Positions 26,077 to 59,183 are shown, counted from the first letter of the stretch. The stretch: DNA of 64,000 nt from Candidatus Eiseniibacteriota bacterium (GCA_046598045.1 JBKJJJ010000127.1:9419-73418), one strand, 5' to 3'. Numbers and translations: made by a program. The notes: generated by a model from the letters alone, not told the origin.

Positions 26077-26201
26077 ACACGGAGGCCGGATCCGGGGGAA
26101 ACTCATTCGATTTTGTCGCCATTCCCTCTTTTGCGGAATCGTGTCCGGGTCCCCCCTCGGCCTCGCCGTCCGTGCCCCCCTGATCAGGAGATCCTGGACG
26201 C

Positions 26202-36504: not shown

Positions 36505-36580
36505 ATGCAAGTTTTGCATTGCAGTCTTGTAAGAAATTTGGCTTACTCCGTACGTTTTTGCCGATAAGAGAATGGTTGCC
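36505..36580 (+). promoter_or_regulatory. AT-rich island with an inverted repeat in the 320-nt leader/intergenic region upstream of the giant gene; likely promoter/operator
   Basis: Local composition drops far below the 70% GC background (catgcaagttttgcattgcagtcttgtaagaaatttggcttactccgtacgtttttgccgataagagaatgg). It contains the inverted repeat TGCAAgtttTTGCA and TTGCAT / TAAGAAAT -35/-10-like hexamers. Confidence 0.35.
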
Positions 36581-36803
36581 GGACAAGGAGTCCGGGAGCC
36601 GCGACACCCCACGTGCGGGGGGTACGCAGCTGCAACCACGAACGGATTCGACACGCCCGTCTCTCGGACGGCCGCAGGATGCGCACACGCATCCTCCTGC
36701 CCCGGCCGTCCCGTGCCCCCCGTTCCACGCACCGACAACTGCTGGCCGTCCGGTCCCACTCGCTTCGTGGCGCCCCCCTGGGCGTTACCCTGGAGGTGAT
36801 GGC

Positions 36804-39800
36804 GTGATTTCGTCCGTGTACCGTCGTGCGCTCGTCCTGGTCCTCGGCCTGCTCGCCATCCCGGCGATCGCCTCCGCGCAATTCACGATCCAGCGCACCT
36901 CCTCGCCCATCTTCTACAACGACGTGGGCAACAGCCCGAGCCTGCGTTGCATGTACGCGTCCTACGAGGTCACGAACACGGGCGGGTCGACGATCGCGGA
37001 CGTGTGGGTCGACATCGGGAGCTTCACCGGTGGCGTCGTGGGCCGCGCGTCGAGCGAGGACGGCGTGGTCGAGCTCGGCGCGATGGCCCCCGGGCAGCGG
37101 AAGACGGCCTACTTCTATCTGCAGGCAAACACGACCACGGGCGTCGCGCAGGGTCACACCGTGCACGTCTACGCGAGCCGCCCTCCCGCCTCTGCGGCGC
37201 TCACGCAGTCGTACACGATCACGTCGGTCCAGAGCACGATTGCGGCCAACGCGAACAAGGTCACGACCGTGGTCAGCGGCCCGAACCCACCGCAGGTCGG
37301 CGGCATCGTGACCATCACCGTGTCCGGCCACACCGGGACGATCGGGTCTCCCCCGGTCCTGGCATTCTCGCCCGCCACCGACATCCTCTGGTCGGCTGCC
37401 GTGTTCGAGATGATCAGCACCCGGATCACGTTCTCGGGGAGCCCCAATGCGGGCGTCGTCACCGACAGCTTGATCGTCGCACCGGCCGACCCGGGGAACA
37501 CGGACTACGTGGCGGTCTACACCATGCGCGCCGCAGGCACGACCGTGGCCCCCACGGCCGTCACGCCGATCGGCTACTTCGCCAGCGGCGCCAACGTCAA
37601 GCACACCGACACCGGGAACTACGGCGGCTTCGCTCCGATCCCGCCGCCCGAGAGCAAGCTCACGCTCACCAAGTCCGCGACGCCGACCTACATCGTCGAC
37701 GGCGGCGTCTCGACCTACACGATCCACATCGTCAACAGCGGCTTCGCGGACGGAACGCTCGACGACATCAAAGATGTGCTCCCGGGCGCCTCGACGATCG
37801 TGCCCGGCAGCTCGACCTTCAACGGCCTGCCGATCGGCGACCCGTCGGTGGCGGGCCGGACCGCGTTCTGGTACGGCCCGTTCACGTTGCTGGCGAACTC
37901 CTCCCGCGACCTGATCTACCAGGCTTCGTTCCCGGCCACGGCCGGCACGTTCGTCAACCAGGCGCTCGCCCACGTGGGCTCGGCGATCATCGACACCACG
38001 CTCGCGCTGAGCGACAGCCTGCCGGGCAAGGCGCCGATCGTGGTCTACGTGCATAACGCGGACATCTCGATCACCAAGGGGGACGTGCCGGACCCGGTCG
38101 GCCCCGACTCGACTTTGACCTACACGCTCGTGGTCTCGAACGCCGGCCCGGACACCGCGTTCACCACCAGCGCGCTCGACACGCTGCCAGCCGGCGTGGC
38201 GTTCGTCAACGCCAGCGCGACCCAGGGCACGGCCTCGGAAGCCTCGGGGGTGGTCCAGGTCGCGATCGGCACGCTCGCCCCGGGCGCAAGCTCGACGATC
38301 ACGATCGTGGTCACGCCGAGCGCGGTCGGCACGCTGGTCAACACGGCACGCGCCACCAACGCGCGCGTCGACTACGTGCCCGGCAACAACACGGCCACCA
38401 CGACCACGACCGTCAGGCTGCCGCCGCTGCCCGACATGCAAATCATCAAACGCGCCGCGCCCGCGATGTTCACGGTGGGACAGACCGTGGCCTACATCCT
38501 GTCGCTGACCAACATCGGCACCGGCCCCACGGAGGGCGCGATCGCGGTCGTCGACACGCTTCCGGCCGGCCTGAGCTACGTCTCGGGCAGTGGCCCGGGC
38601 TGGAGCGTGAGCGAGAGCGGTGGCGTGGTCACCGCCACCAACCCCGGCCCGATCGCGCTCGGCGACAGCGCCCTGGTCACGATCCAGGCGACGGTGAGGG
38701 CGGCGGCCTTCCCGGGCGTGCTCAATCTCGCGCGCGTGACCACGTTCCGGGACTCGGACGCGGCCAACGACACCAGCTCGGTCGTGAACGCGGTGTTGGG
38801 CGCGCCCGACCTCCAACTTGCCAAGCGGCACGCGGGCGACTTCACGGTCGGCTCGCCGGGCCAGTACACGATCACGGTGACGAACGTCGGCAACCTGCCC
38901 ACGACCAGCACGATCACGGTCGTCGACACGCTGCCCTCGGGCCTCGGTTACATCGCCGCCGCCGGTGCGGGGTGGACCACGAACGAAACCTCCGGCATCG
39001 TCACTGCGACCTATGCGAGCCTGATTCTGCCGGGGGACAGCACCTCGTTCACCCTCGATGTCACGGTCGGCCCGGCGGCAGCGCCGTGGGCCGTCAACAC
39101 TGCGGTCTCGACGGTGACGGGCGACGTCGGCGCGGCCAATGATCGCGGCGTCGACTCGACGCGCGTGATCGGGTTCCCCGACGTGCAGATGATCAAGCGC
39201 GCCGTGGGCGCGCCGTTCACCGTCGGCGGCATCGCGACATGGACGCTGACGGCGACCAACGTCGGATCCGGCGCGACCACCGGGCCGATCACGATCACCG
39301 ATACGCTCGCGCCAGGGCTGACCTTCGGGTCTGCCGCCGGCACGGGCTTCAGCACCTCGTTCGCCGACCCGACAGTGACCGCGACCTACGCGGCCGCGCT
39401 CGCCCCCGGGGACAGCGCGACGGTGACGCTCACCGCCCGGGTCTCTGCCGCTGCGTCGCCCGCGGTCGCCAACACCGCGCTCGCGAACACGCCGGGCGAC
39501 ACCAGCGCCGCGAACGACTCGAGCACCGCGACGAGCGCGGTCAATGACGCGCCCGATGTCCGGCTCGCCAAGCGGCACGCCGGTGACTTCACCGTCGGCG
39601 TGAACGGCCAGTACGTCATCAAGGTCTACAACGAAGGCTCGGCTCCGACGACGGGTACGGTCACCGTGCTCGACACGCTGCCCTCCGGCCTCGGCTTCGT
39701 CGCCGGGACGGGCGCGGGCTGGACGGTGAACGAGGCGCTCGGCATCGTGACCGCGACCAATGCGGGGCCGATTGCCGCCGGCGACAGCGCGAGCTTCACG

Positions 39801-42800
39801 CTCGACGTCTCGGTCGGACCCACGGCGATGCCCTCGGTCGTCAATGCGGCCGTCGCGTCCGCCACCGGCGATCTCAATGGCGGCAACGACCGCGGGATCG
39901 ATCCCACGAACGTATCCGCGGCGCTCACGCCCGACCTGCAGGTGGTCAAGCGCGCGCTCGCGCCGCCGTTCACCGTGGGCGGCACCGCGAGCTACGCGAT
40001 CACGGTCACGAACGTCGGCTCCGCCGCGACGACCGGTACGATCACGCTCAGCGACACCCTCCCCGCCGGGCTGACGTGGATCTCGGGCAGCGGCGCGGGC
40101 TGGATCGTCACCCAGTCGCTCGGCACCGTCACCGCCACCAACGCCGGCCCGATCGCGCCCGGCGATAGCGCGCTGGTCACGCTGACCGTGCAGGTCGGCG
40201 CAGCGGCCGCGCCATCGGTGATCAACTCCGCCACCGGCAGCACGCCGGGCGACGCGAGCCCGGGCAACGACACCGGCAGCAGCACGACCGCGGTCAATGA
40301 CGCGCCGGACCTGCGCCTCTCGAAGTCGCACGCCTCGGACTTCACCGTGGGCACGAATGGCCAGTACCGCATCACGCTCTTCAATGACGGCTCGATTCCC
40401 ACCACCGGCACGATCACCGTGCTCGACACGCTCCCCTTCGGCCTCGGCTTCGTCGCCGGGACGGGCGCGGGCTGGAGCGTCAACGAGGCGCTCGGCATCG
40501 TGACCGCGACCAATGCGGGCCCGATCGCCGTCGGCGACAGCGCGAGCTTCACGCTCGACGTCACGGTCGGCCCTGCCGCGTTCCCCGGGGTGACCAACTC
40601 CGCGGTGGCGCAGACCGCGGGCGACATCGACGGCGGCAACGATCGCGGAGTCGACCCCACGATCGTCCAGCCGGCGCCGGTCTTCCCGCCGGACCTGCAG
40701 ATCGTCAAACGCGCACCAGGCGCGCCGTTCACGGTGGGCGGCAGCGCCACCTACGTGCTCTCGGTCACCAACGTGGGCACCGGTCCGACCACGGGCGGCA
40801 TCACGGTGACCGACGTCCTCCCCACCGGGATGACCTTTGTCTCGGGCAGCGGAGCAGGCTGGATCGTCACTGCAGCGCTCGGCACGGTCACCGCGACCAA
40901 CGCGGGCCCGATCGCGTCCGGCGACAGCTCGCTGGTCTCGATCATCACGTCGGTCGGCGCGGCCGCGTTGCCTTCGGTCTCGAACAGCGCGAGCGTGGCG
41001 ACGGCCGGCGACGGCAATGCTGCGAACGACAACGGATCGAACACGAGCGCGGTCAACGGCGCCCCGGATCTCGCGATGGGCAAGCGCCACTTCGGCGCGT
41101 TCACGGTCGGACAGCCGGGCGTCTACACGCTGACCGTCCGCAATGTGGGCAGCATCGCGACCACCGGCACGATCACGGTCGTCGACAGCCTGCCGGCCGG
41201 CCTCACCTACGTGACCGGCAACGGCGCGGGCTGGGCCTTCGGCGCAGCCGGCCAGGTCGTGACCGCGACCAACGCCGGGCCGATCGCGGCCGGCGACAGC
41301 CTCTCCTTCACGCTCACGGTGGCGGTCGGCAATGCCGCCCTGCCGGGCGTGACCAACGTCGCGGTCGCCCGGACGCCGGGGGATGCCAGCCCCGCGAATG
41401 ATCGCGCGACCGATGCGACCGCGATCAGCGGCGCGCCCGACGTCGCATTGCTCAAGCGCCACGTGGGTTCGTTCACGGTGGGCGCGAACGCCGCGTACCA
41501 GATCGCGGTGCTCAACCTCGGCACCGCGGCAACCGCGGGCACGATCACCGTGCGCGACACGCTGCCCACCGGCCTCACGTTCGTGTCGCTTACGGGGGCA
41601 GGCTGGAGCAGCTCGCTCTCGGGCAACGTGGTCACCGCCACGAACCCAGGCCCGATCGCGCCGGCCGACAGCGCCACGTTCACGCTCACCGTGCTCGTCG
41701 GCCCGGCGGCGTATCCGTCGGTCCTGAACGCGGCCGTGGCGCAGGTCGCCGGCGACAACAACCCGGGCAACGACCGCGGCAGTGACGTGCCGGCACCGGT
41801 CGTCTACGCGTCGCAGCTCGCGCTCGAGAAGCGCGCCGCGCCCTCGATCGTCGAGCCTGCGGACGTGGTCACCTACACGCTCGTCCTCTCGAACCTGGGC
41901 GTCTCGCAGGTGCCCGGAGTGGTGGTGCGCGACACGCTGCCGGTCGGCTTCCGCTTCGCCGACGGCACCGCGTCGGTCAACGGCACGCCGATCGCCGACC
42001 CGGCAGGAGCGCCGGGTGCGGGGCTCGCGTTCAACGTCGGCACCGTGCCGGCGAACGGCGCGATCACGCTGCGCTACCGCGCGCTGGTCGGGACGTCGGC
42101 CGTACTGGGCGACGGCATCAACCGTGCCTACGCGGAGAACGCCGGACTCAACCTGCGCTCGAACACCGCCGCGGCGAAGGTCACGATCCACGGCGGCGTG
42201 TTCGCCGACGACGGCGTGCTCGCCGGCAAGGTGTGGGCGGATTGCGACTGCGATTCGAACCGCGCACAGGGCAAGGAGGAACTCGGGGTGCCCGGCGTGC
42301 GGGTCTACCTCGAGGACGGCCGCTCGGCGATCACCGACGTCGAGGGCAAGTACCACTTCGAGGCGGTCGCGCCGCGCCTGCACACGGTCAAGCTCGACAA
42401 GACGACGCTGCCCCAGGGCGCGCACATCGAGGTCGTGAACACGCGCGACGGCATGAGCCCGGGCACGCGCTTTGCGGACGTCAAGGACGGCGAGCTCTAC
42501 CGCGCCGACTTCGCGCTCGCGGGCTGCGACCCGGCGTTCGTGTCCGAGCTCAAGGCCCGGCGCGAGCTGGGCGAGGTGCGCGCGGCGATCCAGACCGCGC
42601 AGCCGACGACCGCTGCCAACGTGGAGCCGGGCGCGACGCGCGTGCTCGACGGCACGCCGTGGGCGGGGGAAGCGGGCGCGCGCAGCGACGACGGCGCGTT
42701 CTATCACGTGATGCCCGGGCATCTCAATGACGGCGCCGCGGGCTCCGATCCGCGCAACTTGCTGTCGGCGGCGAGCTCGCTCGTGCCCGACGCGCCGGGC

Positions 42801-45800
42801 ACGCCGGGGCTGCTCGCCGGCCACATCAGGAACGCGGCCCCGGGGCTCGAGATCTCGGTCCCCCGCCGCCCGGCGCCGGCCGACGGCCACACGCTCGTGC
42901 CGGTGACGGTGCGCGTGCCCGGGGATGCGCCGGTGGCGGTCACGCTCGACAGTGATCTCGGCCTCTGGCAGGTCGCCGACCAGGATCCGAAGCACGACGG
43001 CATCCAGACCAGCGTCACGCACCAGGCCACGTTCCTGCTGGTCGCCCCGGCCTCCGCCGGCGCGGGCACGGTGCGCGTGACCGAGGACACGGACCTGAAG
43101 GGCAAGGTCACGTCGGACGGCCCGACCGCCCTGAGCGGCGTGCGCGAGGCCGAGGCCGGCCTCGTGTTCATCCCGAGCCCGCGGCCGTGGCTGGTCACGG
43201 GCACGATCGAGGGCCGCTACGACGGGCGCTCGGTCCACGCCGACGAGCTCGCTCCGGGGCAGATTCGGGACCGCTTCGAGGACGCGTTCACGGTCGTTCG
43301 TTCGGACAACAGCGACGGCACATCGAACCTCGGCGCGCGCGGCGCGATGTTCGCGAAGGGCACGATCGGCGGCAACGTGGGCGTGACCTTCCGCTTCGAC
43401 TCCGAGCACGCGGCGGACCGTCGCCGCTTCGACGACATTCGCCCGGACGAGGGCGAGGCGAACTTCGGCGACGCGTCGGTCTCGGGCTTCGAGGCGCAGT
43501 CGACCGAGCGCCTGTACGCGCGCCTCGAGCGCGGCCGCTCGTACGCTCTGTACGGCGATTTCCAGACCGCGGCGCTCGACCCGATCCGCGTGCTCGGCGC
43601 GTACTTCCGCGGCGTCAACGGCGGACGCGCGCACCTCGAGAACGGGCGCGCGGCGGTGGACGCGTTCGCGACGCATGACAAGGACCGCCAGGTCGTCGAC
43701 GAGATCGACGGCCGCGGCATCTCGGGCCCGTATCCGCTGTCGCGCAAGGACGGCGTGCTCAACAGCGAGCGCGTCGAGATCGTCACGCGCGACCGCAACA
43801 ACCCGTCGGTGATCCTCGCCCGCAAGGTGATGACGCGCTTCGCGGATTACACGATCGAGCCCTTCACCGGGCGCCTCCTGTTCCGCGCGCCGGTCGAGGC
43901 GCTGGACGAGCGCCTGAACCCGGTCTCGGTGCGCGTGACCTACGAGGTCGAGGGCGGCGGCGACCGCTTCTGGACCGCGGGCGGCAGCGCGAATCTCAAG
44001 CCGGTCGATGGCGTCGAGCTGATGGGCTCGTACGTCAAGGAGGACGACCCGGCGCGCGAGCACGTGCAGTACGGTGCCGGCGCCACCGTGAAGCTCCTCG
44101 CGCGCACGTTCGTGACGGGCGAGTGGGCGCGCACCGACAGCGCGGGCACGGGCGCGGCGAACGCGTATCGCGGGGAGATCCGCCACCAGGCGGACCACCT
44201 CGACCTGCGCGGCTTCGCGGTGCGCACCGATGCCGGCTTCGACAACCCCTCGTCCGGCTACGCGGCCGGACGCCAGGAATGGGGCGGCGGCGCGCGCTAC
44301 CTGCTGGGCGGACGCTCGTCCGCCACGGCCGAGGGCGTGCTGACGAAGGACCTCGCGACCGGCGGACGCCGGAAGGGCGCGTCGCTCGGCCTCGAGCGCC
44401 GCCTCTCGGACGGCGTGTCGCTCGGCATCGGTTATCGCTGGGCGCGCGAGAGCTCGCTGCCGGCGGGCGGCGGCAACGCCGTGCCGACTCCGAACGAGAC
44501 CGACGCCGCGCGCGCACGGCTCACGGCGCAGTTCAACCCGCGCACGAGCCTGTTCGCCGAGTACGAGAACGACCTCGGCGCGGGCAACGCGAAACGCTTC
44601 GAGGTGGGCGGCGACCGGCGCCTCACCGACCATGTGCGGGCGTACGCGCGCCACGAATTCCTGAACGGCTTCGCGGGCCCGTACGCGCTCGACGACCGCC
44701 AGGGCCTCAACACCACCGTCTTCGGGTTCGCGGCCGACGGCCAGTCCGACCTCTCGGCGTTCAGCGAGTACCGCGTGCGCGACGCGTTCGCGGGGCGCAA
44801 CGCCGAGGCCGCGATGGGCCTGAGGGACCGCTTCCGCCTCTCCCCCGCCGTGCGCGTCCTGCTGTCGGTCGAGCGGGTCACGCCGACGAAGGGCGCGCCG
44901 GCGAGCGACGGCATGACCGCGATCGCGAGCGGACTCGAGTGGACCGGCGACCCGCTGACCAAGGGCTCGCTGCGGCTCGAGTACCGCAAGTCGCAGGACC
45001 AGCCGCAATGGCTCGCGTCGGGCGGCCTGGCGCGCAAGCTCGGCCGGGACTGGACGGGCCTCGCGCGCTCGATGTGGAGCTGGGCGCCGAGCCAGCAGCG
45101 CACGGTGGCGCGCGACGAGATCGCGTTCGCGCTGCGCGAGACCGATCGCAACCACTGGAACGTGCTCGGCCGCATCGAGCACCGCCTGGACGAGCAGCAG
45201 CTCGAGCCCGGATTCGACAGCCGCCACGAGGTGTTCCTCGCCTCCACGCGGCTCAACCTCCGCGCCTCGCGCCCGCTCACGCTGATGGGCCGCGCGGCCG
45301 GCAAGTGGACATTCGACGACGCCGGCGCCCGCACGATCGACGGCCGCGGCGCGCTGGCCTCGCTGCGCGCGCTCTACGACCTGTCCCCGCGGCTCGACCT
45401 CGCGCTGGCGGCGCGCTCGCGCTTCGACGGCTCGTTCGACCGCCGCACCGACGGGCTCGGCGCCGAGCTCGGCGTGCTGGTGACGAAGAACCTCAGGCTT
45501 TCGGGTGGCTACAACGCATTCGGGTTCCACGATCCGGACTTCGCCTCGCTCGAGCGCACGGACAAGGGTCCGTTCCTCGCGTTCGGCTTCAAGTTCGACG
45601 AGGGCCTGTTCGGGGGTGGGCACGACGCGGTGCCGGCGGCGGCTTCGGCCCCGGCCGAGGGCGTCCAGCGCGGGGCAATCGCGACCGCGCCGAGGGACAC
45701 GCTGTCGGCCAACTGGGCGCGCGTCAGCGACCCCGCGATCGCGGGCGACCTGCGCACGATCGACGCCTGGCGCGCGCGGGTCGACGCCCAGCCCGATTCG

Positions 45801-46745
45801 CTCGGCATCTACGGGCGCGCCAAGGCGAGGGCCTGGCTCACGCTCGCCCGCGCCGAATACACCGACAACGACCGCACCGGCGACGCCGAGCGCGCGCTGG
45901 CGAACGCCGTGGCGCTCTACCATGCAATGAACGGGGCGAGCGGCATCGATTCGGCCGCGTTCGCAGCCGCCTCGGCGCGGTCCCTCCCGCGCCCCGAGCA
46001 CCTGGCCGCGGGCGACATCGACGCGCGGATCGCGACGTTGAAGACGCACCCCGGATTCCACTGCGCCGAGGAGGAGGTCGCGCGTTACGAGGTCGAGCTC
46101 GCCTGGGCCGGGAACGAGGACCGGGACCAGGGCGCATGCAAGGCCACGCCGCACGAACAGGAAGCGCAGCGCCTTGCCGAGTCGATCGAGGCCAAGGAGG
46201 CGGAGTGCGTCAAGCCGGTCGCGATTCCCGTCCCGGTGGATACGACGCAGGCCCCGCCGGTCATGCCGAACTCGGAAATCGAGGAGATCCAGGCTGCGCT
46301 GGCCGAGATCCCGAGCGGGATCCACTTTGCGCTCAATCGCAATGACCTGAGCGCCACGTCCAGGGACGTCCTCGCGAGGATCGGCGTGGTGATGGCGAAG
46401 TACCCGCACATCAAGGTCGATCTCAAGGGCCACACCGATTCGCGCGGCTCGGTCGCGTACAACCTCGCGCTGTCGAAGCGCCGCGCGGACGCGGTGCAGA
46501 ATGGGCTCGAAGCGGTGGGCGTGGACTCCGCGCGCATCACCACGTCGTTCGCCGGCAAGGGCGAGTTGCTCACGGCGGAGAAGGACGTGCGCGACCTCGC
46601 GCTCAACCGGCGCGTGGACTTCCACTACTATGACCCGACCGGGACCGAGATCATCGCGAAGAAGCAGACCGGGGACATCCAGATCGAGAAGCCGAAGCCG
46701 GCCAGGCGGCCCGCGCGCAAGCGGGCCGTGAAGACCACGCGGTAG
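36804..46745 (+). CDS. Giant cell-surface protein (3313 aa): signal peptide, N-terminal domain, about 11 DUF11 repeats, SdrD-B/CnaB-like domain, long beta-rich (putative beta-barrel) region, C-terminal OmpA-like peptidoglycan-binding domain
   Basis: The start is the GTG at 36804 behind GGAGG (7-nt spacer), giving VISSVYRRALVLVLGLLAIPAIASAQ. The ORF-track frame is open from 36519. DUF11 repeats have the form PDLQLAKRHAGDFTVG..GQYTITVTNVG..PTTGTITVVDTLPSGLG...GAGW...GIVTAT. The SdrD-B-like segment is GKVWADCDCDSNRAQGKEELGVPGVRVYLEDGRSAITDVEGKYHF. The OmpA_C segment is IHFALNRNDLSATSRDVLARIGVVMAKYPHIKVDLKGHTDSRGSVAYNLALSKRRADAVQNGL. Confidence 0.85.
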   Translation: MISSVYRRALVLVLGLLAIPAIASAQFTIQRTSSPIFYNDVGNSPSLRCMYASYEVTNTGGSTIADVWVDIGSFTGGVVGRASSEDGVVELGAMAPGQRKTAYFYLQANTTTGVAQGHTVHVYASRPPASAALTQSYTITSVQSTIAANANKVTTVVSGPNPPQVGGIVTITVSGHTGTIGSPPVLAFSPATDILWSAAVFEMISTRITFSGSPNAGVVTDSLIVAPADPGNTDYVAVYTMRAAGTTVAPTAVTPIGYFASGANVKHTDTGNYGGFAPIPPPESKLTLTKSATPTYIVDGGVSTYTIHIVNSGFADGTLDDIKDVLPGASTIVPGSSTFNGLPIGDPSVAGRTAFWYGPFTLLANSSRDLIYQASFPATAGTFVNQALAHVGSAIIDTTLALSDSLPGKAPIVVYVHNADISITKGDVPDPVGPDSTLTYTLVVSNAGPDTAFTTSALDTLPAGVAFVNASATQGTASEASGVVQVAIGTLAPGASSTITIVVTPSAVGTLVNTARATNARVDYVPGNNTATTTTTVRLPPLPDMQIIKRAAPAMFTVGQTVAYILSLTNIGTGPTEGAIAVVDTLPAGLSYVSGSGPGWSVSESGGVVTATNPGPIALGDSALVTIQATVRAAAFPGVLNLARVTTFRDSDAANDTSSVVNAVLGAPDLQLAKRHAGDFTVGSPGQYTITVTNVGNLPTTSTITVVDTLPSGLGYIAAAGAGWTTNETSGIVTATYASLILPGDSTSFTLDVTVGPAAAPWAVNTAVSTVTGDVGAANDRGVDSTRVIGFPDVQMIKRAVGAPFTVGGIATWTLTATNVGSGATTGPITITDTLAPGLTFGSAAGTGFSTSFADPTVTATYAAALAPGDSATVTLTARVSAAASPAVANTALANTPGDTSAANDSSTATSAVNDAPDVRLAKRHAGDFTVGVNGQYVIKVYNEGSAPTTGTVTVLDTLPSGLGFVAGTGAGWTVNEALGIVTATNAGPIAAGDSASFTLDVSVGPTAMPSVVNAAVASATGDLNGGNDRGIDPTNVSAALTPDLQVVKRALAPPFTVGGTASYAITVTNVGSAATTGTITLSDTLPAGLTWISGSGAGWIVTQSLGTVTATNAGPIAPGDSALVTLTVQVGAAAAPSVINSATGSTPGDASPGNDTGSSTTAVNDAPDLRLSKSHASDFTVGTNGQYRITLFNDGSIPTTGTITVLDTLPFGLGFVAGTGAGWSVNEALGIVTATNAGPIAVGDSASFTLDVTVGPAAFPGVTNSAVAQTAGDIDGGNDRGVDPTIVQPAPVFPPDLQIVKRAPGAPFTVGGSATYVLSVTNVGTGPTTGGITVTDVLPTGMTFVSGSGAGWIVTAALGTVTATNAGPIASGDSSLVSIITSVGAAALPSVSNSASVATAGDGNAANDNGSNTSAVNGAPDLAMGKRHFGAFTVGQPGVYTLTVRNVGSIATTGTITVVDSLPAGLTYVTGNGAGWAFGAAGQVVTATNAGPIAAGDSLSFTLTVAVGNAALPGVTNVAVARTPGDASPANDRATDATAISGAPDVALLKRHVGSFTVGANAAYQIAVLNLGTAATAGTITVRDTLPTGLTFVSLTGAGWSSSLSGNVVTATNPGPIAPADSATFTLTVLVGPAAYPSVLNAAVAQVAGDNNPGNDRGSDVPAPVVYASQLALEKRAAPSIVEPADVVTYTLVLSNLGVSQVPGVVVRDTLPVGFRFADGTASVNGTPIADPAGAPGAGLAFNVGTVPANGAITLRYRALVGTSAVLGDGINRAYAENAGLNLRSNTAAAKVTIHGGVFADDGVLAGKVWADCDCDSNRAQGKEELGVPGVRVYLEDGRSAITDVEGKYHFEAVAPRLHTVKLDKTTLPQGAHIEVVNTRDGMSPGTRFADVKDGELYRADFALAGCDPAFVSELKARRELGEVRAAIQTAQPTTAANVEPGATRVLDGTPWAGEAGARSDDGAFYHVMPGHLNDGAAGSDPRNLLSAASSLVPDAPGTPGLLAGHIRNAAPGLEISVPRRPAPADGHTLVPVTVRVPGDAPVAVTLDSDLGLWQVADQDPKHDGIQTSVTHQATFLLVAPASAGAGTVRVTEDTDLKGKVTSDGPTALSGVREAEAGLVFIPSPRPWLVTGTIEGRYDGRSVHADELAPGQIRDRFEDAFTVVRSDNSDGTSNLGARGAMFAKGTIGGNVGVTFRFDSEHAADRRRFDDIRPDEGEANFGDASVSGFEAQSTERLYARLERGRSYALYGDFQTAALDPIRVLGAYFRGVNGGRAHLENGRAAVDAFATHDKDRQVVDEIDGRGISGPYPLSRKDGVLNSERVEIVTRDRNNPSVILARKVMTRFADYTIEPFTGRLLFRAPVEALDERLNPVSVRVTYEVEGGGDRFWTAGGSANLKPVDGVELMGSYVKEDDPAREHVQYGAGATVKLLARTFVTGEWARTDSAGTGAANAYRGEIRHQADHLDLRGFAVRTDAGFDNPSSGYAAGRQEWGGGARYLLGGRSSATAEGVLTKDLATGGRRKGASLGLERRLSDGVSLGIGYRWARESSLPAGGGNAVPTPNETDAARARLTAQFNPRTSLFAEYENDLGAGNAKRFEVGGDRRLTDHVRAYARHEFLNGFAGPYALDDRQGLNTTVFGFAADGQSDLSAFSEYRVRDAFAGRNAEAAMGLRDRFRLSPAVRVLLSVERVTPTKGAPASDGMTAIASGLEWTGDPLTKGSLRLEYRKSQDQPQWLASGGLARKLGRDWTGLARSMWSWAPSQQRTVARDEIAFALRETDRNHWNVLGRIEHRLDEQQLEPGFDSRHEVFLASTRLNLRASRPLTLMGRAAGKWTFDDAGARTIDGRGALASLRALYDLSPRLDLALAARSRFDGSFDRRTDGLGAELGVLVTKNLRLSGGYNAFGFHDPDFASLERTDKGPFLAFGFKFDEGLFGGGHDAVPAAASAPAEGVQRGAIATAPRDTLSANWARVSDPAIAGDLRTIDAWRARVDAQPDSLGIYGRAKARAWLTLARAEYTDNDRTGDAERALANAVALYHAMNGASGIDSAAFAAASARSLPRPEHLAAGDIDARIATLKTHPGFHCAEEEVARYEVELAWAGNEDRDQGACKATPHEQEAQRLAESIEAKEAECVKPVAIPVPVDTTQAPPVMPNSEIEEIQAALAEIPSGIHFALNRNDLSATSRDVLARIGVVMAKYPHIKVDLKGHTDSRGSVAYNLALSKRRADAVQNGLEAVGVDSARITTSFAGKGELLTAEKDVRDLALNRRVDFHYYDPTGTEIIAKKQTGDIQIEKPKPARRPARKRAVKTTR
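38050..41900 (+). repeat. Tandem array of DUF11-type repeat units inside the giant gene, organised as an alternating A/B di-domain unit of about 750 nt repeated at least 4 times (approximate boundaries)
   Basis: A-type units begin APD(L/V)(Q/R)LAKRHAGDFTVG near 38806, 39551, 40302 and 41061, giving periods of 745, 751 and 759 nt. B-type units (KRA.GAPFTVGG...NVG.G.TTG.IT) sit between them. Confidence 0.7.
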
Positions 46746-46770
46746 CCCAGGGGCCGATCGCAAACAAAGC

Positions 46771-46805
46771 GGGCCGCCGGAGCGATCCGGCGGCCCGTTT
46801 GCTTT
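46771..46805. terminator. Bidirectional intrinsic terminator between the convergent giant gene and the thioredoxin-TPR gene
   Basis: A perfect 10-bp stem gggccgccgg / ccggcggccc with loop agcgat is flanked by aaacaaagc upstream and gtttgcttt downstream, so it has U-tracts in both orientations. Confidence 0.7.
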
Positions 46806-46825: not shown

Positions 46826-48223
46826 CTACTGCCCGGCGGCCGGCGGACCCAGGAGCGCGTCCCGCCGCTTGGTCAACGTGGCGAGCGTCGAGCGGCTGCG
46901 CTGCGCCTCGGGAAGCGCGTTGAGATACGCGATCGCCACCTCGTACGTCTTGCGCGCGGACACGGCGTCGCCCTTGCCCGTGAACGCATCGGCGCGTGCG
47001 AGATAGCTGCGCAGCTTGCGCGGCCCGTAGGCCCGCGCGAGCGCCCGGTCGGTTGCCGCCAGCGCGTCATCCCAGCGCTTGAGCGCGTTGTAGGCGATCG
47101 CCAGCCGGGCCGGCGGATTGTAATCGTTCGGTAGCGCCTGCTCGGACGCCTGGAGCATCGGGATGGCCTTCTCAGGCTGTCCCAGCTCGAGGTACGCCGA
47201 GAGCCGGTGCGGATCGAACACCGCGCGCTCGTCCGCCGTCCTGGCGCGGGCCGCGGCGCCCTCGAGGAAAGCGGCCCATTGCTCTGCGACCGCGTGCGCC
47301 CCGGTCGAATCGTGCGCCTCGGAGCGGGCGTCGTGCAACACGCCGTACGTGCCGCTGCGGTCATCGTCCGACATCAGGATCGAGGGGTCGGCCAGGTAGT
47401 CCCGCGTCCTCGCCTCGTAGCGCGCGATCAGCGCGGCACGCCCTTCCGCCGTGTCCGGCAACGCCAGCGCCGCCCCGAGCGCGCTGCCCGTGATGCTCGC
47501 GCCCGAGGTCGTGCGTCCGAGGCGCGGCAGCACGGTCTCGGCGAGCGCGAGCGAGGCGCGGCTCTGGTCGGTGGTCGAGAGCGCGTACATGAGCGATTCG
47601 ACCGCGCGTGCGTAGCTCGCGTCTCCCGGCGCGAGCGCCGGCAACGCCTCCTGGTAGGCCGTGGCCGCGGCCGCATAGTTGCCGTCGCCGTACAGGCGAT
47701 CCGCACGCGCGAGCGGTCCCCCGGGCGCCGCGAGTGCGGCGCGCGCGTCGTCGAGGAAGGCGTGGAGCTGGGGTAGCGTCATGCCGCCGACCCAACGCCG
47801 GACGACGGTCTCGCTCTCGGCGTTCACCACGTAGAACGTGGGAAGCGCCTCGGTCGGGAGCTTCTTGAGCGCGGCCTGGTTCCTGGATTTCTCGTTATCA
47901 AGCGCCAGCCAGACAAACTGCCCGGCCCGGCTCGAGAGGGACGCGTCCGTGAAGACGAACGCCCTCATCGAGCGACACGTGTGTCACCAGGGTGCCCACG
48001 ACTCGACGAAGATCGGAACGTGCCGCGCGCGCGCGATCGTCACCGCCCGCGCGTAATTGTCGGCGATGAACGGCACGGCCTCGGGACGCGCGGCCGCCTT
48101 CGCGACCGGCTTCGCGGCGTGCTTCGCGGGGTGCTTCGCGGCCACCGCGGCCTGCGCTGGCGCACTCGAGCCGGCCACGGCGGCGAACGCGAGGATGAGG
48201 AGCGATCCAACTCGAGCCAGCAT
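46826..48223 (-). CDS. Secreted thioredoxin-fold plus TPR protein with an in-frame TGA at the first Cys of the W-C-x-x-C motif; candidate selenoprotein (alternatively a pseudogene or sequencing error)
   Basis: Two ORF-track ORFs (47984..48346 and 46826..47968) are in the same frame and are separated only by the TGA at 47984..47986. The read-through product is MLARVGSLLILAFAAVAGSSAPAQA...VPIFVESWAPW-[TGA]-HTCRSMRAFVFTDASL..., that is WAPW(U)HTC, a TlpA/DsbE-like WCxxC motif with Sec at the nucleophilic position, followed by about 300 aa of TPR repeats. The start is assigned to the ATG (codon 48221..48223) behind GGAGGTG (7-nt spacer). Confidence 0.5.
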
Positions 48224-48411
48224 GCTTGCACCTCCAATGCGGGAGAACGACCGTCGGCAGCATGCCCCAGCGCCAGGACGCGCGCAACGGCCGCGCGATA
48301 TCGGCCCCGGCGCCCCGTCCCGGCGACTCAGGGCGATCCGCAACAACCGGTTGCCAGTCTGTCGCTTATGGCTCCGAAGCGCGCGTCCCGCTGATCCGCT
48401 AGGATACGCGG

Positions 48412-49896: not shown

Positions 49897-51609
49897 TCAG
49901 CCGCCGACGGCGCTGACCCTCACCATGCGCTTCGCCGCGTTCAGCCCGGGGCCGACCGCGCGATAGAAGAACACGCCCGGCGCCACCTTGCTGCCCGCGT
50001 CGTCCCGGCCATCCCACGTCGCCGCGTGCGTCCCCGCGGGCAGCTCGGTCGAGAGCAGGTGCTTCACCTCGCGGCCCGCGACGTCGAAGATCACGATCTC
50101 GGTGTGGCCCGCCGTAGGCAGCGTGAAACCGATCGAGGTCGTGACCGTGAACGGGTTCGGCCACGCGTCGCGCAGCGCCACGCTCCCGCCCCCGCCACCC
50201 GGATCGACCGAGGTGACGCGCGGCTGGAACCAGCCGATGTCCTCGAACGCGAACTTCGTCAGGTCGACGGTGCTCGAGAGGCCGTCGGTGATGAACGGCT
50301 CCATCAGGAGGCTCGGCTCCGCGCTCGGGTCCCAGTGCGAGATCGACGAGCCCGGCTCGACCGGGTTCGGGGTGTAGAGCAGCACGCGCCCGTTGTCGTC
50401 GGCGCCCGCGAGGAACGCGGGGTTCGGCCCGATCGACATGGTGACTCCGCCGCCGAGCTGCCCCTTGATCGCGGTGCCGTCCGCCTGCGAGACGCTGACC
50501 GTCGGGATCGTGATGCTCGGGTCGGTGCCGCCCATCGCGGGCGGCGTGCCGGCCACGTTGTTCACGATCACGACCGCGATTGCGCCGGCCGCCTGCGCGC
50601 CGGCCGTCTTCTGGACGAAAGCACAGTTGCCGCGGTCGATGAGCGCGATCTTGCCCACCATCGCGCCGCCGTTGACCAGCGCGGTGCAGCCATCGGACGT
50701 CGGCACGAGGCCGTCATCGGCGAGCACGACCGATCCGCTGACCGTCGCGGCGCCGGCGGAGGGGCCGAAGTCGGCGGTGCCGTAGACCTTGAGCCCCGCG
50801 ATCCCCGCCGGCGTGAGCACGCGCACCTCGGTGCGCGGGCCGAGCACGGTCGGCGCGACCACCTTGACCGCGGAGCCGTCCCATCCCACGTGGCCGGTGT
50901 TGAGCGCCGAGGTCGCGCGCTGGGCGTTGCTCATGGTGTTCCAGCGCAGCCCCACCGAGTTGTCGAAGACGAAGCGCTGGTAGATGTCCGGGAAGTTGTT
51001 GAAAAACGCGCCGGTGCTCAGGCTGCCGTACTGGGCGAAGCCCAGGCCATGGCCGAGCTCGTGCAGCACGACCGGCAACAGCTCGATCTTGCCGACGGGC
51101 TCGTTGCCGTCGACGCCGTAGTACCACGTCTGGCCGCCGAGGCAGCCGCCCCCGTCGAGCGTGGAATTGAACTGCGCATTGATATCGTTGCCGAGAGGGT
51201 CCTCGTCGACGCCCGCGAGCCGGCTCGCGAGGGCAATCGGATACCAGGTCCCCGTGAACTCCGCGTTCGGAAAGTCGCGCAGCAGCGTGACCGCGCCCGC
51301 GCTGCCGAGAGCCGCGCTCGTGGCGTCGCAGCTCAAGGGGTTGAACTGCGCCGACACCTTGATCGTCACCGCCGAGGGCAGAATGTTGCCCCAGATGCCG
51401 GCCGCATTCTGGAACACGAACAGGCGCTGCGCGCCGAGCGTCGTCCCCGGGTTGCCGCCGACAGGCGCCGCGGCGGTCGGATCATTGAAGCCCTCGCCCG
51501 CACCATCCGAGTTGACGATCACGATCGTCGCCGCTCGCGCGACGAGGGGAATGGAGAGAGTCATGAAGACGAGGAGGGCGGCCGGCGTGAACCTGCGGAG
51601 CTCGCCCAT
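49897..51609 (-). CDS. Secreted zinc metalloprotease (HExxH) with PA (protease-associated) domain and T9SS CTD
   Basis: The start is the ATG at 51609 (MGELRRFTPAALLVFMTLSIPLVARAA). The zinc-binding motif is VVLHELGHGLGF. The PA domain is GKIALIDRGNCAFVQKTAGAQAAGAIAVVIVNN. The C-terminus AWPNPFTVTTSIGFTL...GVFFYRAVGPG is a T9SS CTD. Confidence 0.7.
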   Translation of the reverse strand: MGELRRFTPAALLVFMTLSIPLVARAATIVIVNSDGAGEGFNDPTAAAPVGGNPGTTLGAQRLFVFQNAAGIWGNILPSAVTIKVSAQFNPLSCDATSAALGSAGAVTLLRDFPNAEFTGTWYPIALASRLAGVDEDPLGNDINAQFNSTLDGGGCLGGQTWYYGVDGNEPVGKIELLPVVLHELGHGLGFAQYGSLSTGAFFNNFPDIYQRFVFDNSVGLRWNTMSNAQRATSALNTGHVGWDGSAVKVVAPTVLGPRTEVRVLTPAGIAGLKVYGTADFGPSAGAATVSGSVVLADDGLVPTSDGCTALVNGGAMVGKIALIDRGNCAFVQKTAGAQAAGAIAVVIVNNVAGTPPAMGGTDPSITIPTVSVSQADGTAIKGQLGGGVTMSIGPNPAFLAGADDNGRVLLYTPNPVEPGSSISHWDPSAEPSLLMEPFITDGLSSTVDLTKFAFEDIGWFQPRVTSVDPGGGGGSVALRDAWPNPFTVTTSIGFTLPTAGHTEIVIFDVAGREVKHLLSTELPAGTHAATWDGRDDAGSKVAPGVFFYRAVGPGLNAAKRMVRVSAVGG

Positions 51610-52166
51610 CACTGGACCTCGTGCTTCGGCGCGGGCGCCGCGGCCTGGGTCTGTGCATCCTTCCGGAAGCGCGCGGCCGCCTCGGGCCCGTGCACGCAAT
51701 CGCGCACCAGCTTGCCGTCCGGACCGATGCGCGCCACCTCGTACTCCTGGAATCGCTCGTCGAGCCGCGCCAGCGTGGCGCCGTTGGCGAGCCGCTCCGT
51801 GGTGATGCCGCGCGCGGGATCATCATCGGGCGCGGCCTGGTGGATGCCGGACTGGGCGTCGAGCGCCTGCACCTGCTCGGCGGTCGGACGCACGAGGCGT
51901 CCGGTCGCCGGATCGATCGCGGCCTTCATGCCGAAGGTTCCGCGCGTCGTCGCAACCTTCGCGGCGCGCACGCGCGTAACGTGCGCCTTGGCGTGCGCGG
52001 CCTTGGCGTGCGTCGCCTTGGCGTGCGTCGCCTTGCGCGCGGTCGGGAGCAACGTGTGCGCCCCTGCGGCCTGGGCCGGCGGCGTGGATGCGATCATGAT
52101 CAGGGCGGTGAGCGCTCCGGCGATGCTGACCCGGAGCGTGGGGGGCTGAGCAATCCATCGCTTCAT
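51609..52166 (-). CDS. Small secreted protein (185 aa) with His-Ala-Lys tandem repeats, unknown function; translationally coupled to the metalloprotease
   Basis: This is the C-terminal part of the spurious ORF-track frame 51609..53153. The real start is the ATG at 52166 (MKRWIAQPPTLRVSIAGALTALIMIASTPPAQA). ATHAKATHAKAAHAKAH is encoded by three 15-nt tandem repeats (gccttggcgtgcg.. family, about 51976..52022). The stop overlaps the metalloprotease ATG by 1 nt. Confidence 0.55.
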   Translation of the reverse strand: MKRWIAQPPTLRVSIAGALTALIMIASTPPAQAAGAHTLLPTARKATHAKATHAKAAHAKAHVTRVRAAKVATTRGTFGMKAAIDPATGRLVRPTAEQVQALDAQSGIHQAAPDDDPARGITTERLANGATLARLDERFQEYEVARIGPDGKLVRDCVHGPEAAARFRKDAQTQAAAPAPKHEVQ

Positions 52167-56356: not shown

Positions 56357-58453
56357 CTAGACCTTCCCGACCTCGACGAAATTGGTGTAGAACGTCGCGC
56401 CGCCGCCGGCATCCGTCAGGCGCAGCGACGTGGTCTGGTTCGCGTTGGCGCCGCCCTCGGTGAAGCGCGACCACCATCCGCGATAGCACGCGACCACGCC
56501 GGGGCCGGTCAGGTCCGACACCTCGGCGGTCGTGATCCACGAGCCGCGATCGTTCCACACGCGCACGCGGTCCCCGCTCGCAATGCCGCGGGCCTCCGCG
56601 TCGGCCGCGCTGAGGTAGAGCAGCGGGCCCTTCGCCAGCCGCCGGCCGCGCTCATTCTCGACCATCGAGGAGTTGATGAAGTAGCGCGACGCCGGGGTCA
56701 GGAAGTGGAGCGGCCACTTCGCGTGCTCGGCCGCCACGTCGGGGTGGGTGTCCTCGCTCGTGAGCGCGCCCAGCACCGGATCGAGGCCGTGCCCCTTCAT
56801 CAGGCTCGAGACGAACTCGACCTTGCCCGAAGGCGTGTCGAACTTCCCGTCGAGCCACGGCGAGTACACCGGCAGCCGCGGATCCTGCGGAGCCAAAGGC
56901 ACGCTGCGCTCGCGCTCGAGGCGCTCGGGGGTGATGCCCTTGAGCCGCGGGTTCGCCGGGTTGTCGAGCGCGATCGCGAGCACGTCGTCGAACGTCTGGT
57001 CGAAGCACGGATCGTCGAGCCCCATGCGGTGCGCGAGGTCCTGGAACACGTCGAACAGCGGGCGGCACTCGCCGGGCGCGGGCACGGCCGGGCGATTGAG
57101 CTGCAGGTGGTAGTGGCCGTACGCGAGATGCAGGTCCGAGTGCTCCATCTGCATGGTCGAGGGCAGGAGCACGTCGGCATGGAGCGCGGTGTCGGTCATG
57201 AACTGCTCGTGCACGACCGTGAACAGGTCCTCGCGCTCGAGCCCCTTGCGCACGCGCGACTGGTCCGGGTTCGACGCGCCCGGGTTCGCCGAGTAGACGA
57301 ACATGGCGCGCACGGGCGGATCCAATTCGGTCAGCGCCTGGCCCAGCAGCGACATGTTGATCGTGCGCGGGGTGCGCGGCTCGAGGTCCGGGCGGGCCAT
57401 GCCCTTGCGATTGAGCCCGAAGGCCGCGGACGTCGAGAGCCGCGCGCCACCGCCGGGCCGCGCCCAGTCCCCCACCAGCGCGGGCAGGAGCGCGACTGCG
57501 CGCACCATGGCCGCGCCGTTGGTGTGACGATTGAGGCCGTAGTTGAGCCGCACCAGCGCCGGCCGCGACTCCGGGGCCGCGTACAACGCGGCGAGCCGGC
57601 GAATGTCCTCCGCCGGGACGCCGGTGAGCTGCGCGGCGCGCTCGGGTGGGCACTCCTGGGCACGCGCGCGATACTCGCGCCAGCCCAGCGCGTGCGCCTC
57701 GAGCCACGGTTCGTCGTGCCAGCCGTGGGCGAAGATCTCGTGCGCCACCGCAAGCGCGAGTGCGGCGTCGGTGCCGGGCCGGACGCGGATGTGCCAGTCG
57801 GCCTTCTCCGCGGTCGGCGTCCTGAGCGGGTCGATCACCACGACCTGCGCGCCGCCCTTGCGCGCGTCCTCGATGAACGGCCAGTCGTGGATCGAGGTCG
57901 CGAGCACGTTCGCGCCCCAGAGCACGATCAGCTTCGTGAGCGGAATCGATTCGGGAGGCGGACCCTGGTTCGTGCCGTAGCACGACCAGAAGCCCTGGGT
58001 CCCCGTGGTCGAACAGATCGTCTCGTCGAGGCGCGACGCGCCGAGCGCGTGGAAGAATCTCCGGTCCATCGAGCCATTCTGGATGAGCCCCATCGTGCCG
58101 GCGTAGTGGTAGGGCAGGAGCGCCTCGCCGCCATGCTGGTCGATGATCGCGCGCAGCCGTGCGGCGACCAGGTCCAATGCCTCGTCCCAGCTCGCGCGGC
58201 GGAACTCGCCCTTGCCCTTCGCCCCGCTACGGATCTGGGGATAGAGCAGGCGCTCGGCGTGGTTCAGGCGCTCGTCGTAGCGATTGACCTTGTTGCACAG
58301 GAAGCCGCGCGTGACCGGGTGCGCGGGGTCGCCGTGGACGCGGACGACCTTGTCGCCTTCGACCTCGACCAGCAGTGCGCAGGTGTCGGGGCAGTCGTGC
58401 GGGCATACGGCCTTGAGGGTGCGGCGTTCGGGGGTCGCGGTGGCGGGCGTCAT
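56357..58453 (-). CDS. Molybdopterin (bis-MGD) oxidoreductase family catalytic subunit with N-terminal 4Fe-4S cysteine motif (nitrate reductase/formate dehydrogenase-like; substrate unknown)
   Basis: 698 aa. CPHDCPDTCALLVE (Cx2Cx3C...C) is followed by MGD-binding domains, with a C-terminal molydopterin-dinucleotide-binding domain (...GDRVRVWNDRGSWITTAEVSD...). Confidence 0.8.
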   Translation of the reverse strand: MTPATATPERRTLKAVCPHDCPDTCALLVEVEGDKVVRVHGDPAHPVTRGFLCNKVNRYDERLNHAERLLYPQIRSGAKGKGEFRRASWDEALDLVAARLRAIIDQHGGEALLPYHYAGTMGLIQNGSMDRRFFHALGASRLDETICSTTGTQGFWSCYGTNQGPPPESIPLTKLIVLWGANVLATSIHDWPFIEDARKGGAQVVVIDPLRTPTAEKADWHIRVRPGTDAALALAVAHEIFAHGWHDEPWLEAHALGWREYRARAQECPPERAAQLTGVPAEDIRRLAALYAAPESRPALVRLNYGLNRHTNGAAMVRAVALLPALVGDWARPGGGARLSTSAAFGLNRKGMARPDLEPRTPRTINMSLLGQALTELDPPVRAMFVYSANPGASNPDQSRVRKGLEREDLFTVVHEQFMTDTALHADVLLPSTMQMEHSDLHLAYGHYHLQLNRPAVPAPGECRPLFDVFQDLAHRMGLDDPCFDQTFDDVLAIALDNPANPRLKGITPERLERERSVPLAPQDPRLPVYSPWLDGKFDTPSGKVEFVSSLMKGHGLDPVLGALTSEDTHPDVAAEHAKWPLHFLTPASRYFINSSMVENERGRRLAKGPLLYLSAADAEARGIASGDRVRVWNDRGSWITTAEVSDLTGPGVVACYRGWWSRFTEGGANANQTTSLRLTDAGGGATFYTNFVEVGKV

Positions 58454-58499
58454 GGCGCATGAGCGTACGCCGCCGGGGCCCCCGCTTCAAGCCGCGGAC

Positions 58500-59183
58500 T
58501 CAGTCGTTCGGGGCGCGGCGCTCGAGCTGGCGCGAGCGCTCGAGCGCCCGGTCCCACTCCTCGGGCGTGTTGACGCCGGCCAGGCTCTCGAGTCCGCCGG
58601 GCCAGACGCCGTCCTTCTCGACCTCGAGATAGCGGATCCGCGGGCCCAGGTCCGTCAGGGCGCGCGCCGGGGAGCGCTCCCCGCGATTCCACGCCGCGCG
58701 CAGAACCGCCCCCGCATACACCGGCCGATAGGCCCCGATCAGCGGCTCGACGCCGCGCATGGTGCGGGGCACGACGGCCGCGGGCGGCACGACCGACAGC
58801 GTGGCGAGCGGCCCGTCCACCGGATCGAGCGCCAGTGCGAGCGCATCGAGATGGGCGTCCCCGATCAGCGGCAGGTCGGCCGGGATCACCCACGCCACGT
58901 CCGCGCGCGCGGTCGCCGCGCGCTCGAGCGCGGGCACGAGCCCGGCGAGCGGCCCGTCGCCGTTCGAGAGATCATCGACGCGCTCGAAGCGCGCGCCGTC
59001 CGGAGGCAGCGGAAACGCGTGCGGCACGGCAACGAAAATGCGCTCGGTGCGCACGCTCAGCAATTGGATCGCGCGTTCGAGCAGCGACATGCCGCCGAAC
59101 GTGCGCAACGCCTTGGGAGGGCCCGGGCCGAGCCGCATGCCCGAGCCACCGGCGAGGATGATGCCCGCGCGCACGAGGCTCAC
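58500..59183 (-). CDS. mobA: Molybdenum cofactor nucleotidyltransferase (MobA/MocA-like)
   Basis: The ORF-track frame 58500..59735 has a 184-aa Arg-rich N-terminal extension that overlaps the upstream gene. The real start is the GTG at 59183 (GTGA overlap), giving VSLVRAGIILAGGSGMRLGPGPPKALRTF..., the canonical MobA glycine-rich N-terminus. The neighbouring bis-MGD enzyme favours a guanylyltransferase (MobA) over a MocA assignment. Confidence 0.65.
   Translation of the reverse strand: MSLVRAGIILAGGSGMRLGPGPPKALRTFGGMSLLERAIQLLSVRTERIFVAVPHAFPLPPDGARFERVDDLSNGDGPLAGLVPALERAATARADVAWVIPADLPLIGDAHLDALALALDPVDGPLATLSVVPPAAVVPRTMRGVEPLIGAYRPVYAGAVLRAAWNRGERSPARALTDLGPRIRYLEVEKDGVWPGGLESLAGVNTPEEWDRALERSRQLERRAPND

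Follow-up and report, generated by a model that had tools for sequence, protein, structure and literature searches.

The window analyzed here, a 64,000-nucleotide stretch of a Candidatus Eiseniibacteriota bacterium genome (GCA_046598045.1, JBKJJJ010000127.1:9419-73418), carries on its minus strand a gene for a thioredoxin-like protein whose reading frame is crossed by one TGA (Table 1). Two open reading frames (ORFs), 48346..47984 and 47968..46826, lie in the same frame with this single TGA between them, at 47986..47984, as an initial annotation of the window had noticed and as both the ORF calls and the translation bear out. Read through from the ATG at 48223 to the TAG at 46828..46826, the frame gives a translation of 465 residues in which the TGA is codon 80, in the context ...FVESWAPW*HTCRSMRAFVFTD.... 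The translation and the homologues also agree with the earlier observation that the TGA falls at W-A-P-W-[TGA]-H-T-C, at the N-terminal redox position; that is, the UGA of the mRNA occupies the position of the nucleophilic Cys in the CxxC center of a thioredoxin (Trx) fold. Based on the comparative and RNA evidence outlined below, we propose that this TGA is a genuine selenocysteine (Sec) codon and that the gene is a functional selenoprotein gene, a reading to which we assign a probability of about 0.9.

Several properties of the locus itself frame this proposal. No further stop or frameshift occurs in the read-through frame, either in the window gene or in the TGA-form loci described below. 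When all 64 kb were scanned in six frames for a TGA with coding signal on both sides (50 stop-free codons each side, with coding-type GC content at third and second codon positions), the TGA at codon 80 was the sole return. Elsewhere in the window TGA is an ordinary terminator, ending 13 of the 31 listed ORFs; thus, recoding at codon 80 would be site-specific. The identical TGA is present in the Logan assembly of run SRR31159421 (L001), which was possibly built from the window's own reads and therefore represents a second assembler, not second data.

Table 1. Features of the gene and of its surroundings, in window coordinates
Feature	Position	Strand	Remarks
Probable selenoprotein coding sequence, 465 codons plus TAG stop	46826..48223	-	ATG 48223..48221; continuous frame with one TGA
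Shine-Dalgarno-like GGAGG	48231..48235	-	7 nt 5' of the ATG; read from the sequence
Predicted signal peptide, residues 1-25, MLARVGSLLILAFAAVAGSSAPAQA	48149..48223	-	From the translation; A-x-A cleavage motif; cleavage site placed by inference, no predictor
Thioredoxin-fold domain, Thioredoxin_7 / DsbD-gamma type, about residues 47-165	47729..48085	-	
UGA codon 80, probably read as Sec	47984..47986	-	N-terminal residue of the U-H-T-C redox motif
SECIS-like stem-loop within the coding sequence, extended stem	47930..47973	-	Core 47966..47936; 18-48 nt past the UGA
Lower helix GAGG/CCUC	47966..47963 and 47939..47936	-	Apical helix and loop around 47956..47945
TPR-like alpha-solenoid, about nine helix pairs, about residues 172-455	46859..47710	-	TPR_12 above cut-off; model of P0005
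Intrinsic terminator hairpin, 12 bp (11 G-C), then CTTTGTTTGC	46770..46797	-	Between the gene and the convergent gene for a 3408-residue protein
Molybdopterin (bis-PGD) oxidoreductase	56360..58486	-	No in-frame TGA
ORF with MobA-like NTP_transf_3 domain	within 58503..59735	-	

Codon 80 among the homologues

The initial annotation had suggested that homologues be inspected for Cys or TGA at the column of codon 80. For this comparison the family alignment was scanned against one genome per species (GTDB representatives), and the codon was read directly. Among the 80 species-level loci, the column holds TGA in 67 and TGC or TGT in 12, with 1 locus unresolved on a short contig; across the 79 resolved loci it is never Trp or Gly, only TGA or a Cys codon. 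Alternation of TGA and Cys at one column is the Sec/Cys exchange signature of bacterial selenoproteins (PMC1794560). A scan of the locus flanks for additional in-frame TGAs gave ordinary gene ends only.

The record titles of these loci name Candidatus Eisenbacteria/Eiseniibacteriota, Krumholzibacteriia, Thermoanaerobaculia, Vicinamibacteria, Holophagales, other Acidobacteriota, and a few other labels, and some of the taxon labels may be binning errors. The TGA form occurs in complete genomes too, among them OY970178.1 (Candidatus Eisenbacteria, 3.6 Mb) and OY970224.1 (Acidobacteriota, 3.8 Mb). Four family members (L013, L015, L018, and L066) sit on contigs labeled Udaeobacter, Saccharimonadales, Limnocylindria, and Deltaproteobacteria. 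Either the family truly extends past Acidobacteriota and Eisenbacteria or these contigs are mis-binned; for a high-GC locus, Saccharimonadales is a particularly implausible label.

The sequence on each side of the TGA behaves as coding sequence. The upstream in-frame ORF is open in all 67 TGA loci and begins with Met and a hydrophobic leader or signal peptide in 64 of them, the remaining three running off the contig end upstream; such a hydrophobic N-terminal leader is found in TGA-form and Cys-form loci alike where the upstream sequence is complete. The TGA loci share the upstream motif LPFIxDDY..A...A....P.F.E.WAPW. Measured against the window sequence, the median ratio of nonsynonymous to synonymous substitution (dN/dS) is 0.37 over the 30 codons upstream of the TGA and 0.23 over the 30 codons downstream, at a dS of about 0.8; both sides are therefore translated in one frame. 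Judged from this comparison of sequences, the mRNA is translated from the ATG at 48223 as a single frame. Two hallmarks of a selenoprotein gene are therefore present at this locus, namely, a UGA aligned with Cys in homologues and same-frame protein conservation flanking that UGA.

These data also bear on whether the TGA is simply a mistake, that is, a TGC or TGT misread during sequencing or assembly, or mutated to TGA in a pseudogene. One base is all that separates TGA from TGC or TGT, but the identical TGA recurs in the separate SRR31159421 assembly and in 66 further species-level genomes that stem from many projects, and the frame has no other stop or frameshift. Protein conservation and purifying selection on either side of the TGA exclude a pseudogene or a base-call error. 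The initial annotation had judged a pseudogene unlikely on the ground that a decaying gene would more probably carry its stop elsewhere; with the recurrent TGA and the selection on both of its sides in hand, we regard the whole explanation as effectively refuted already.

A trace of the TGA is also visible in public protein collections. A search over 5.8 billion proteins returned 1,698 matches, and the best 120 of these are bimodal in length. Full-length homologues in this set have 425-522 residues and contain W(A)PWCH[TSA]C; 28 others (376-393 residues, P0001 and P0002 among them) share the start M[RK]A[FY]V[FL]TD, exactly at Met86, six codons past the Cys/Sec position, and P0042 (373 residues) starts four residues beyond Met86. 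When 1.84 billion representatives of clusters at 50% identity were searched with a profile, 732 family members were found at E <= 1e-30, and 41 of the best 150 representatives begin exactly at the Met86 profile position. Such starts are expected if gene callers halt at the TGA and restart at the next Met. The public records concerned (P0001, P0002, P0009, P0027, P0080, and others), about 380 residues long, are named "tetratricopeptide repeat protein" or "hypothetical protein."

Could the public gene calls be right as they stand? They annotate exactly what would be expected of two products, a 79-residue secreted peptide ending at the TGA and a 380-residue tetratricopeptide repeat (TPR) protein started at Met86, and some termination at UGA is expected in any case under selenium limitation. 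We nonetheless consider this arrangement very improbable. It would sever the thioredoxin fold at its active site, where the full-length Cys orthologues are continuous; in our reading of the sequence, no Shine-Dalgarno-like motif precedes the Met86 codon (47968), whereas GGAGG precedes the ATG at 48223; the Met86 product would be made without a signal peptide; and the Sec-specific RNA structure and codon bias described below would be left unexplained. The comparative pattern (TGA in the same column, selection, and Met86 starts) rules out the pseudogene, sequencing-error, and split-gene readings.

The stem-loop and the decoding of the UGA

Just past the UGA, the initial annotation had drawn a bulged hairpin at about 47935..47975 and had left its identity as a selenocysteine insertion sequence (SECIS) unconfirmed. 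The hairpin is real: the 60 nucleotides (nt) of the window that start at the UGA have a folding energy of -29.3 kcal/mol (z -3.25), and none of 200 shuffles was as stable. Two registers of the helix were drawn by hand and tested by pair counts after a run of RNAalifold. Register 1 has the lower helix GAGGGCCUU/AAGGCCCUC, the apical helix GUCU/GGAC, and the loop UCAC; its pairs form in 81% of cells, versus 32-56% when the 3' side is shifted, and it shows covariation at pair 30-54 (G-C to A-U or C-G) and at pair 33-51 (C-G to G-C or U-A). Register 2, the minimum-energy fold of the window sequence, has the loop CUUC and is 72% paired family-wide, less than Register 1. The lower GAGG/CCUC helix, common to both registers, is 89.6% paired.

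Because the region is coding, stability was further assessed against synonymous shuffles drawn from each gene's own codon usage. Over nt +16 to +60, the TGA forms fold at -17.4 kcal/mol, compared with -12.8 kcal/mol for their synonymous-codon shuffles (mean z -1.6, with 94% below 0), whereas the Cys forms have a z of -0.26 in the same test (TGA versus Cys, Mann-Whitney p = 7e-4). Codon choice in the arms follows the same division. Among the TGA forms, Arg87 is encoded by AGG in 48 of 60 cases, compared with a 6% share of AGG among the gene's other Arg codons; the arm Leu is CTC in 64 of 68 cases; and the arm Ser is TCC in 22 of 25 cases, versus TCG in 5 of 6 Cys forms. In total, these observations show that the stem-loop is selectively maintained only in the genes that carry the UGA. 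Two Cys-form (TGT, TGC) orthologues, L059:1151-1222 and L031:3115-3186, retain the Sec-type codons AGG ... (T/G)C(C/G) CTC and look like recent Sec-to-Cys conversions keeping a fossil SECIS, a state that has been described for such conversions (PMC1794560).

The published model of the bacterial SECIS (bSECIS) specifies a loop of 3-9 nt, an upper stem of 4-16 bp, a G in the first two loop positions, a spacing of 16-37 nt, and a minimum free energy <= -7.5 (PMC13188914). The hairpin agrees with this model in its stem-loop, its spacing (27-31 nt), and its energy, and it agrees with the G-in-loop rule only when the loop is drawn as GUCUUCAC, with an invariant GU and a spacing of 27 nt from the UGA. 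We conclude that a SECIS is probably present and that its apical loop is not clearly canonical. The doubt expressed in the initial annotation was overcautious, given that the hairpin is kept in TGA forms (by codon choice, covariation, and stability) and decays in Cys forms. Separately, a terminator scan picked out a small hairpin inside the SECIS region, CGCUC-GAUGA-GGGCG then UUCGUCUUCA, at window 47960..47974 on the minus strand; this hairpin and the lower SECIS helix compete for one GGG run, which makes two alternative folds possible just past the UGA.

A number of observations weigh against Sec insertion at codon 80 and need to be set beside this evidence. The apical helix can be placed in more than one register, the loop being UCAC family-wide and CUUC in the window's minimum-energy fold, and in most sequences a G stands at the first two loop positions only when two apical pairs are opened. 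Applied to 65 distinct TGA-form segments, RNAalifold yielded no SECIS hairpin, only a trivial helix of 5 bp spanning the UGA, likely because the basal and apical helices differ in register among sequences. Of the 68 Sec forms, 66 pass our re-implementation of the bSECIS rules, but so do all 12 Cys forms; compliance is therefore uninformative in GC-rich sequence of this kind, and we dropped it as evidence. The Rfam scan of the window gave no match. The Cys group is small: the stability test drew on 10 sequences and the rule test on 12. When the flanks of the 80 loci were clustered, no conserved neighbor emerged, the largest cluster consisting of antisense ORFs over the gene itself, and the function, export, and partners that we discuss below are predicted from domains alone. 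Finally, there is no selA, selB, selD, or tRNA-Sec in the window or in the scanned locus flanks, the rest of the genome lying outside the search. Pfam annotation of the window's main ORFs identified no selA, selB, or selD, and the tRNAs that ARAGORN detected in the window and 60 related loci were tRNA-Pro and tRNA-Arg, with no tRNA-Sec; the initial annotation had likewise stated that the window encodes no selD or other selenium-utilization gene.

Might the UGA, then, be decoded without Sec machinery? In such a scheme, near-cognate or suppressor read-through aided by the hairpin would place Trp, Cys, or Gly at residue 80 and leave a sulfur-only or inactive center. Both the failure to find the machinery in the window and flanks, the only stretches searched, and an apical loop with no clear match to the G-in-loop bSECIS consensus are compatible with this scheme, which we nonetheless consider improbable for several reasons: the column holds only TGA or Cys codons, never Trp or Gly, at 79 loci, as in Sec/Cys exchange (PMC1794560); residue 80 is the nucleophilic position of the CxxC center; the literature documents the Sec trait in Acidobacteria; and a selenium-cofactor gene, YqeC, lies in the same window. 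The YqeC-family gene ("selenium cofactor biosynthesis protein," 59183..60091, minus strand) had been pointed out in the initial annotation, and it scores 80.1 bits with TIGR03172 against an equivalog cut-off of 73.05. As evidence of selenium use in the genome of the window, it is indirect. Sec insertion at codon 80 remains by far the most probable reading.

Domains, fold, and known relatives

With Cys substituted for the stop, a Pfam scan of the protein matched Thioredoxin_7 (PF13899; 32.4 bits versus a cut-off of 27, residues 55-134), Thioredoxin (PF00085; 29.2 bits versus 23.5), and TPR_12 (32.4 bits versus 30.1). Structure was modeled for the Cys orthologue P0005 (63% identity; 119 aligned sequences) as a proxy for the window protein. 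The model, with a predicted local distance difference test score (pLDDT) of 91.7 and a predicted template modeling score (pTM) of 0.87, comprises a Trx domain and a TPR solenoid preceded by a disordered leader, where the N-terminal pLDDT is low. The WCHTC of P0005 (residues 71-75) lies between a strand (residues 63-68) and a helix (residues 73-82), at the N terminus of helix 1, and about nine helix pairs follow at residues 164-448 with pLDDT above 90. The best fold matches of the solenoid are TPR superhelices (LGN, consensus TPR, Sti1/Hop, and CHIP). The C-terminal part is, by its tandem helix-turn-helix solenoid, a member of the TPR class, and the N-terminal domain is a member of the Thioredoxin_7/DsbD-gamma type. 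The architecture first proposed for the read-through protein (signal peptide, thioredoxin-like domain, and TPR region) holds, with about nine helix pairs where about 8 repeats had been claimed. In a comparison by sequence profile, the solved structures closest to the protein are 2kuc, a putative disulfide isomerase (7e-16), and the C-terminal domains of DsbD (1e-10); none of the PDB matches is a solved structure spanning both the Trx and the TPR parts.

Thioredoxin-fold selenoproteins with a UxxC center are a known class that includes Sec-thioredoxin (PF00085), a "thiol:disulfide interchange protein" (PF13098), and DsbG-like and DsbA-like proteins (PMC1794560, PMC13188914). Like the window protein, members of this class have Sec in place of the N-terminal nucleophilic Cys of CxxC, many Cys orthologues, and a SECIS hairpin in the coding sequence just past the UGA, and several of the families are also exported envelope proteins. 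What sets the window protein apart from the class is the fusion of a Trx domain of Thioredoxin_7/DsbD-gamma type with a TPR solenoid about 290 residues long. A 2026 inventory covering 119 families of prokaryotic selenoproteins lists none with a TPR fusion, the terms "TPR" and "tetratricopeptide" occurring 0 times in it, and the BSepDB and deep-Sep texts make no mention of a TPR-fused selenoprotein. No NCBIfam selenoprotein model matches the window protein, the best being TsoB at 18 bits versus a cut-off of 805. A literature search on selenocysteine in Eisenbacteria found nothing relevant.

The other NCBIfam similarities of the protein, to DsbD, TrxC, and TlpA, are all subthreshold. Similar Trx domains occur at the C terminus of DsbD (the gamma domain) and in exported proteins related to cytochrome c biogenesis (PDB 2fwe, 1vrs_D, 3f9u_B, and 2kuc). 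In contrast to DsbD, the window protein has neither a membrane domain nor an alpha domain, carries Sec for Cys, and has an added TPR region. We rejected identity with full-length DsbD, as the model NF001419 gives 32.6 bits versus a cut-off of 330 and matches in the C-terminal part only.

CnoX/YbbN (COG3118, "thioredoxin-like negative regulator of GroEL") has the same domain order, an N-terminal Trx domain followed by a C-terminal TPR region, and JGI gives the COG3118 name to many of the Cys homologues. Unlike Escherichia coli CnoX, the window protein has a signal peptide and a TPR region roughly twice as long, and the redox center of its family is U/CxxC, compared with SQHC in E. coli CnoX. 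Membership in CnoX was rejected, given this signal peptide and an hhalign alignment with the E. coli protein that covers 63 Trx-core columns only, at a probability of 21%. Another relative by design is the Trx7/PDZ domain-containing selenoprotein (NF041199), which likewise joins a Thioredoxin_7-type domain to a protein-binding module and is a predicted selenoprotein. It has CxxU, with the Sec at the C-terminal position, and a PDZ domain, whereas the window protein has UxxC and TPRs; the NF041199 model does not match the window protein at E <= 0.1.

Genomic setting, proposed mechanism, and significance

The window gene is monocistronic, divergent from a MatE gene and convergent with the gene for a 3408-residue protein at 36519..46745 on the plus strand. 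The latter has 11 DUF11 repeats and a C-terminal OmpA domain, and the terminator at 46770..46797 is common to both genes. The sole hint of local synteny in the family is a tRNA-Pro(CGG) on the opposite strand, about 3 kb downstream, at similar distance in L010, L017, L023, L033, L049, and L061.

YqeC belongs to a three-gene cluster at 56360..60091 on the minus strand, together with the molybdopterin oxidoreductase and the MobA-like ORF of Table 1. YqeC is usually tied to selenium-dependent hydroxylases of the xanthine dehydrogenase type; its pairing here with an enzyme of the dimethyl sulfoxide reductase family is unusual. Elsewhere in the window (19494..29714 on the plus strand and 49900..51819 on the minus strand), a FlgD_ig domain forms the end of each of three large S8 subtilases and of a PA-domain protein, which suggests that FlgD_ig is a shared C-terminal sorting or anchoring module in this organism.

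How might the gene be expressed, and what might its product do? Drawing on established knowledge of bacterial Sec decoding, we posit that the stem-loop acts as a bacterial SECIS that would recruit SelB-GTP-Sec-tRNA(Sec), such that Sec would be inserted at codon 80 without termination. The domains of the 465-residue product suggest that it would be exported through its Sec-type signal peptide and that, in the envelope or periplasm, its U-H-T-C center would cycle between selenolate/thiol and selenenylsulfide (U80-C83) states, making the protein a thiol-disulfide oxidoreductase. A protein client or partner would be held by the TPR solenoid, which makes up about 290 residues at the C terminus. In this model, the protein would amount to a periplasmic reductase of DsbD-gamma/TlpA type with a TPR client-binding module, and so to an envelope equivalent of CnoX, the Trx-TPR chaperedoxin of the cytoplasm. 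The expected reductant would be a donor of CcdA/DsbD type; no such donor is linked to the gene. We speculate further, and tentatively, that the family could be an uncatalogued selenoprotein family, an envelope selenium-dependent "chaperedoxin" in which a Sec-containing Trx center is joined to a large client-binding TPR solenoid and the SECIS is a variant outside the standard G-in-loop model. This broader proposal strikes us as possible but doubtful. The variant loop reads UCAC or CUUC, or GUCUUCAC when opened.

Within the known UxxC class, we rate the window protein as an added, TPR-fused family that is widespread and not conceptually surprising. Its spread is through soil Eisenbacteria and Acidobacteriota, and its proteins stand in public annotations in shortened form, with no selenoprotein label. 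The dozens of calls shortened to Met86 lose the Trx domain and the signal peptide, which leads to a wrong assignment of function as well as of location; a family model that makes an exception for Sec would put these public annotations right. The roughly 65 natural coding-region SECIS variants, together with the 12 Cys-form sequences as "decay" controls, make up a set for refining bacterial SECIS models, a set that is useful because current models do not discriminate Sec from Cys forms here.

The finding extends the Sec trait to Candidatus Eisenbacteria, and with TGA in 67 of the 79 resolved species-level loci, the Sec form is the majority state of the family. An exported redox protein is thereby suggested as a major selenium sink in soil Acidobacteriota. 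If the proposal is true, this majority Sec form could be one of the main uses of selenium in soil Eisenbacteria and Acidobacteriota, phyla that are abundant and mostly uncultured.

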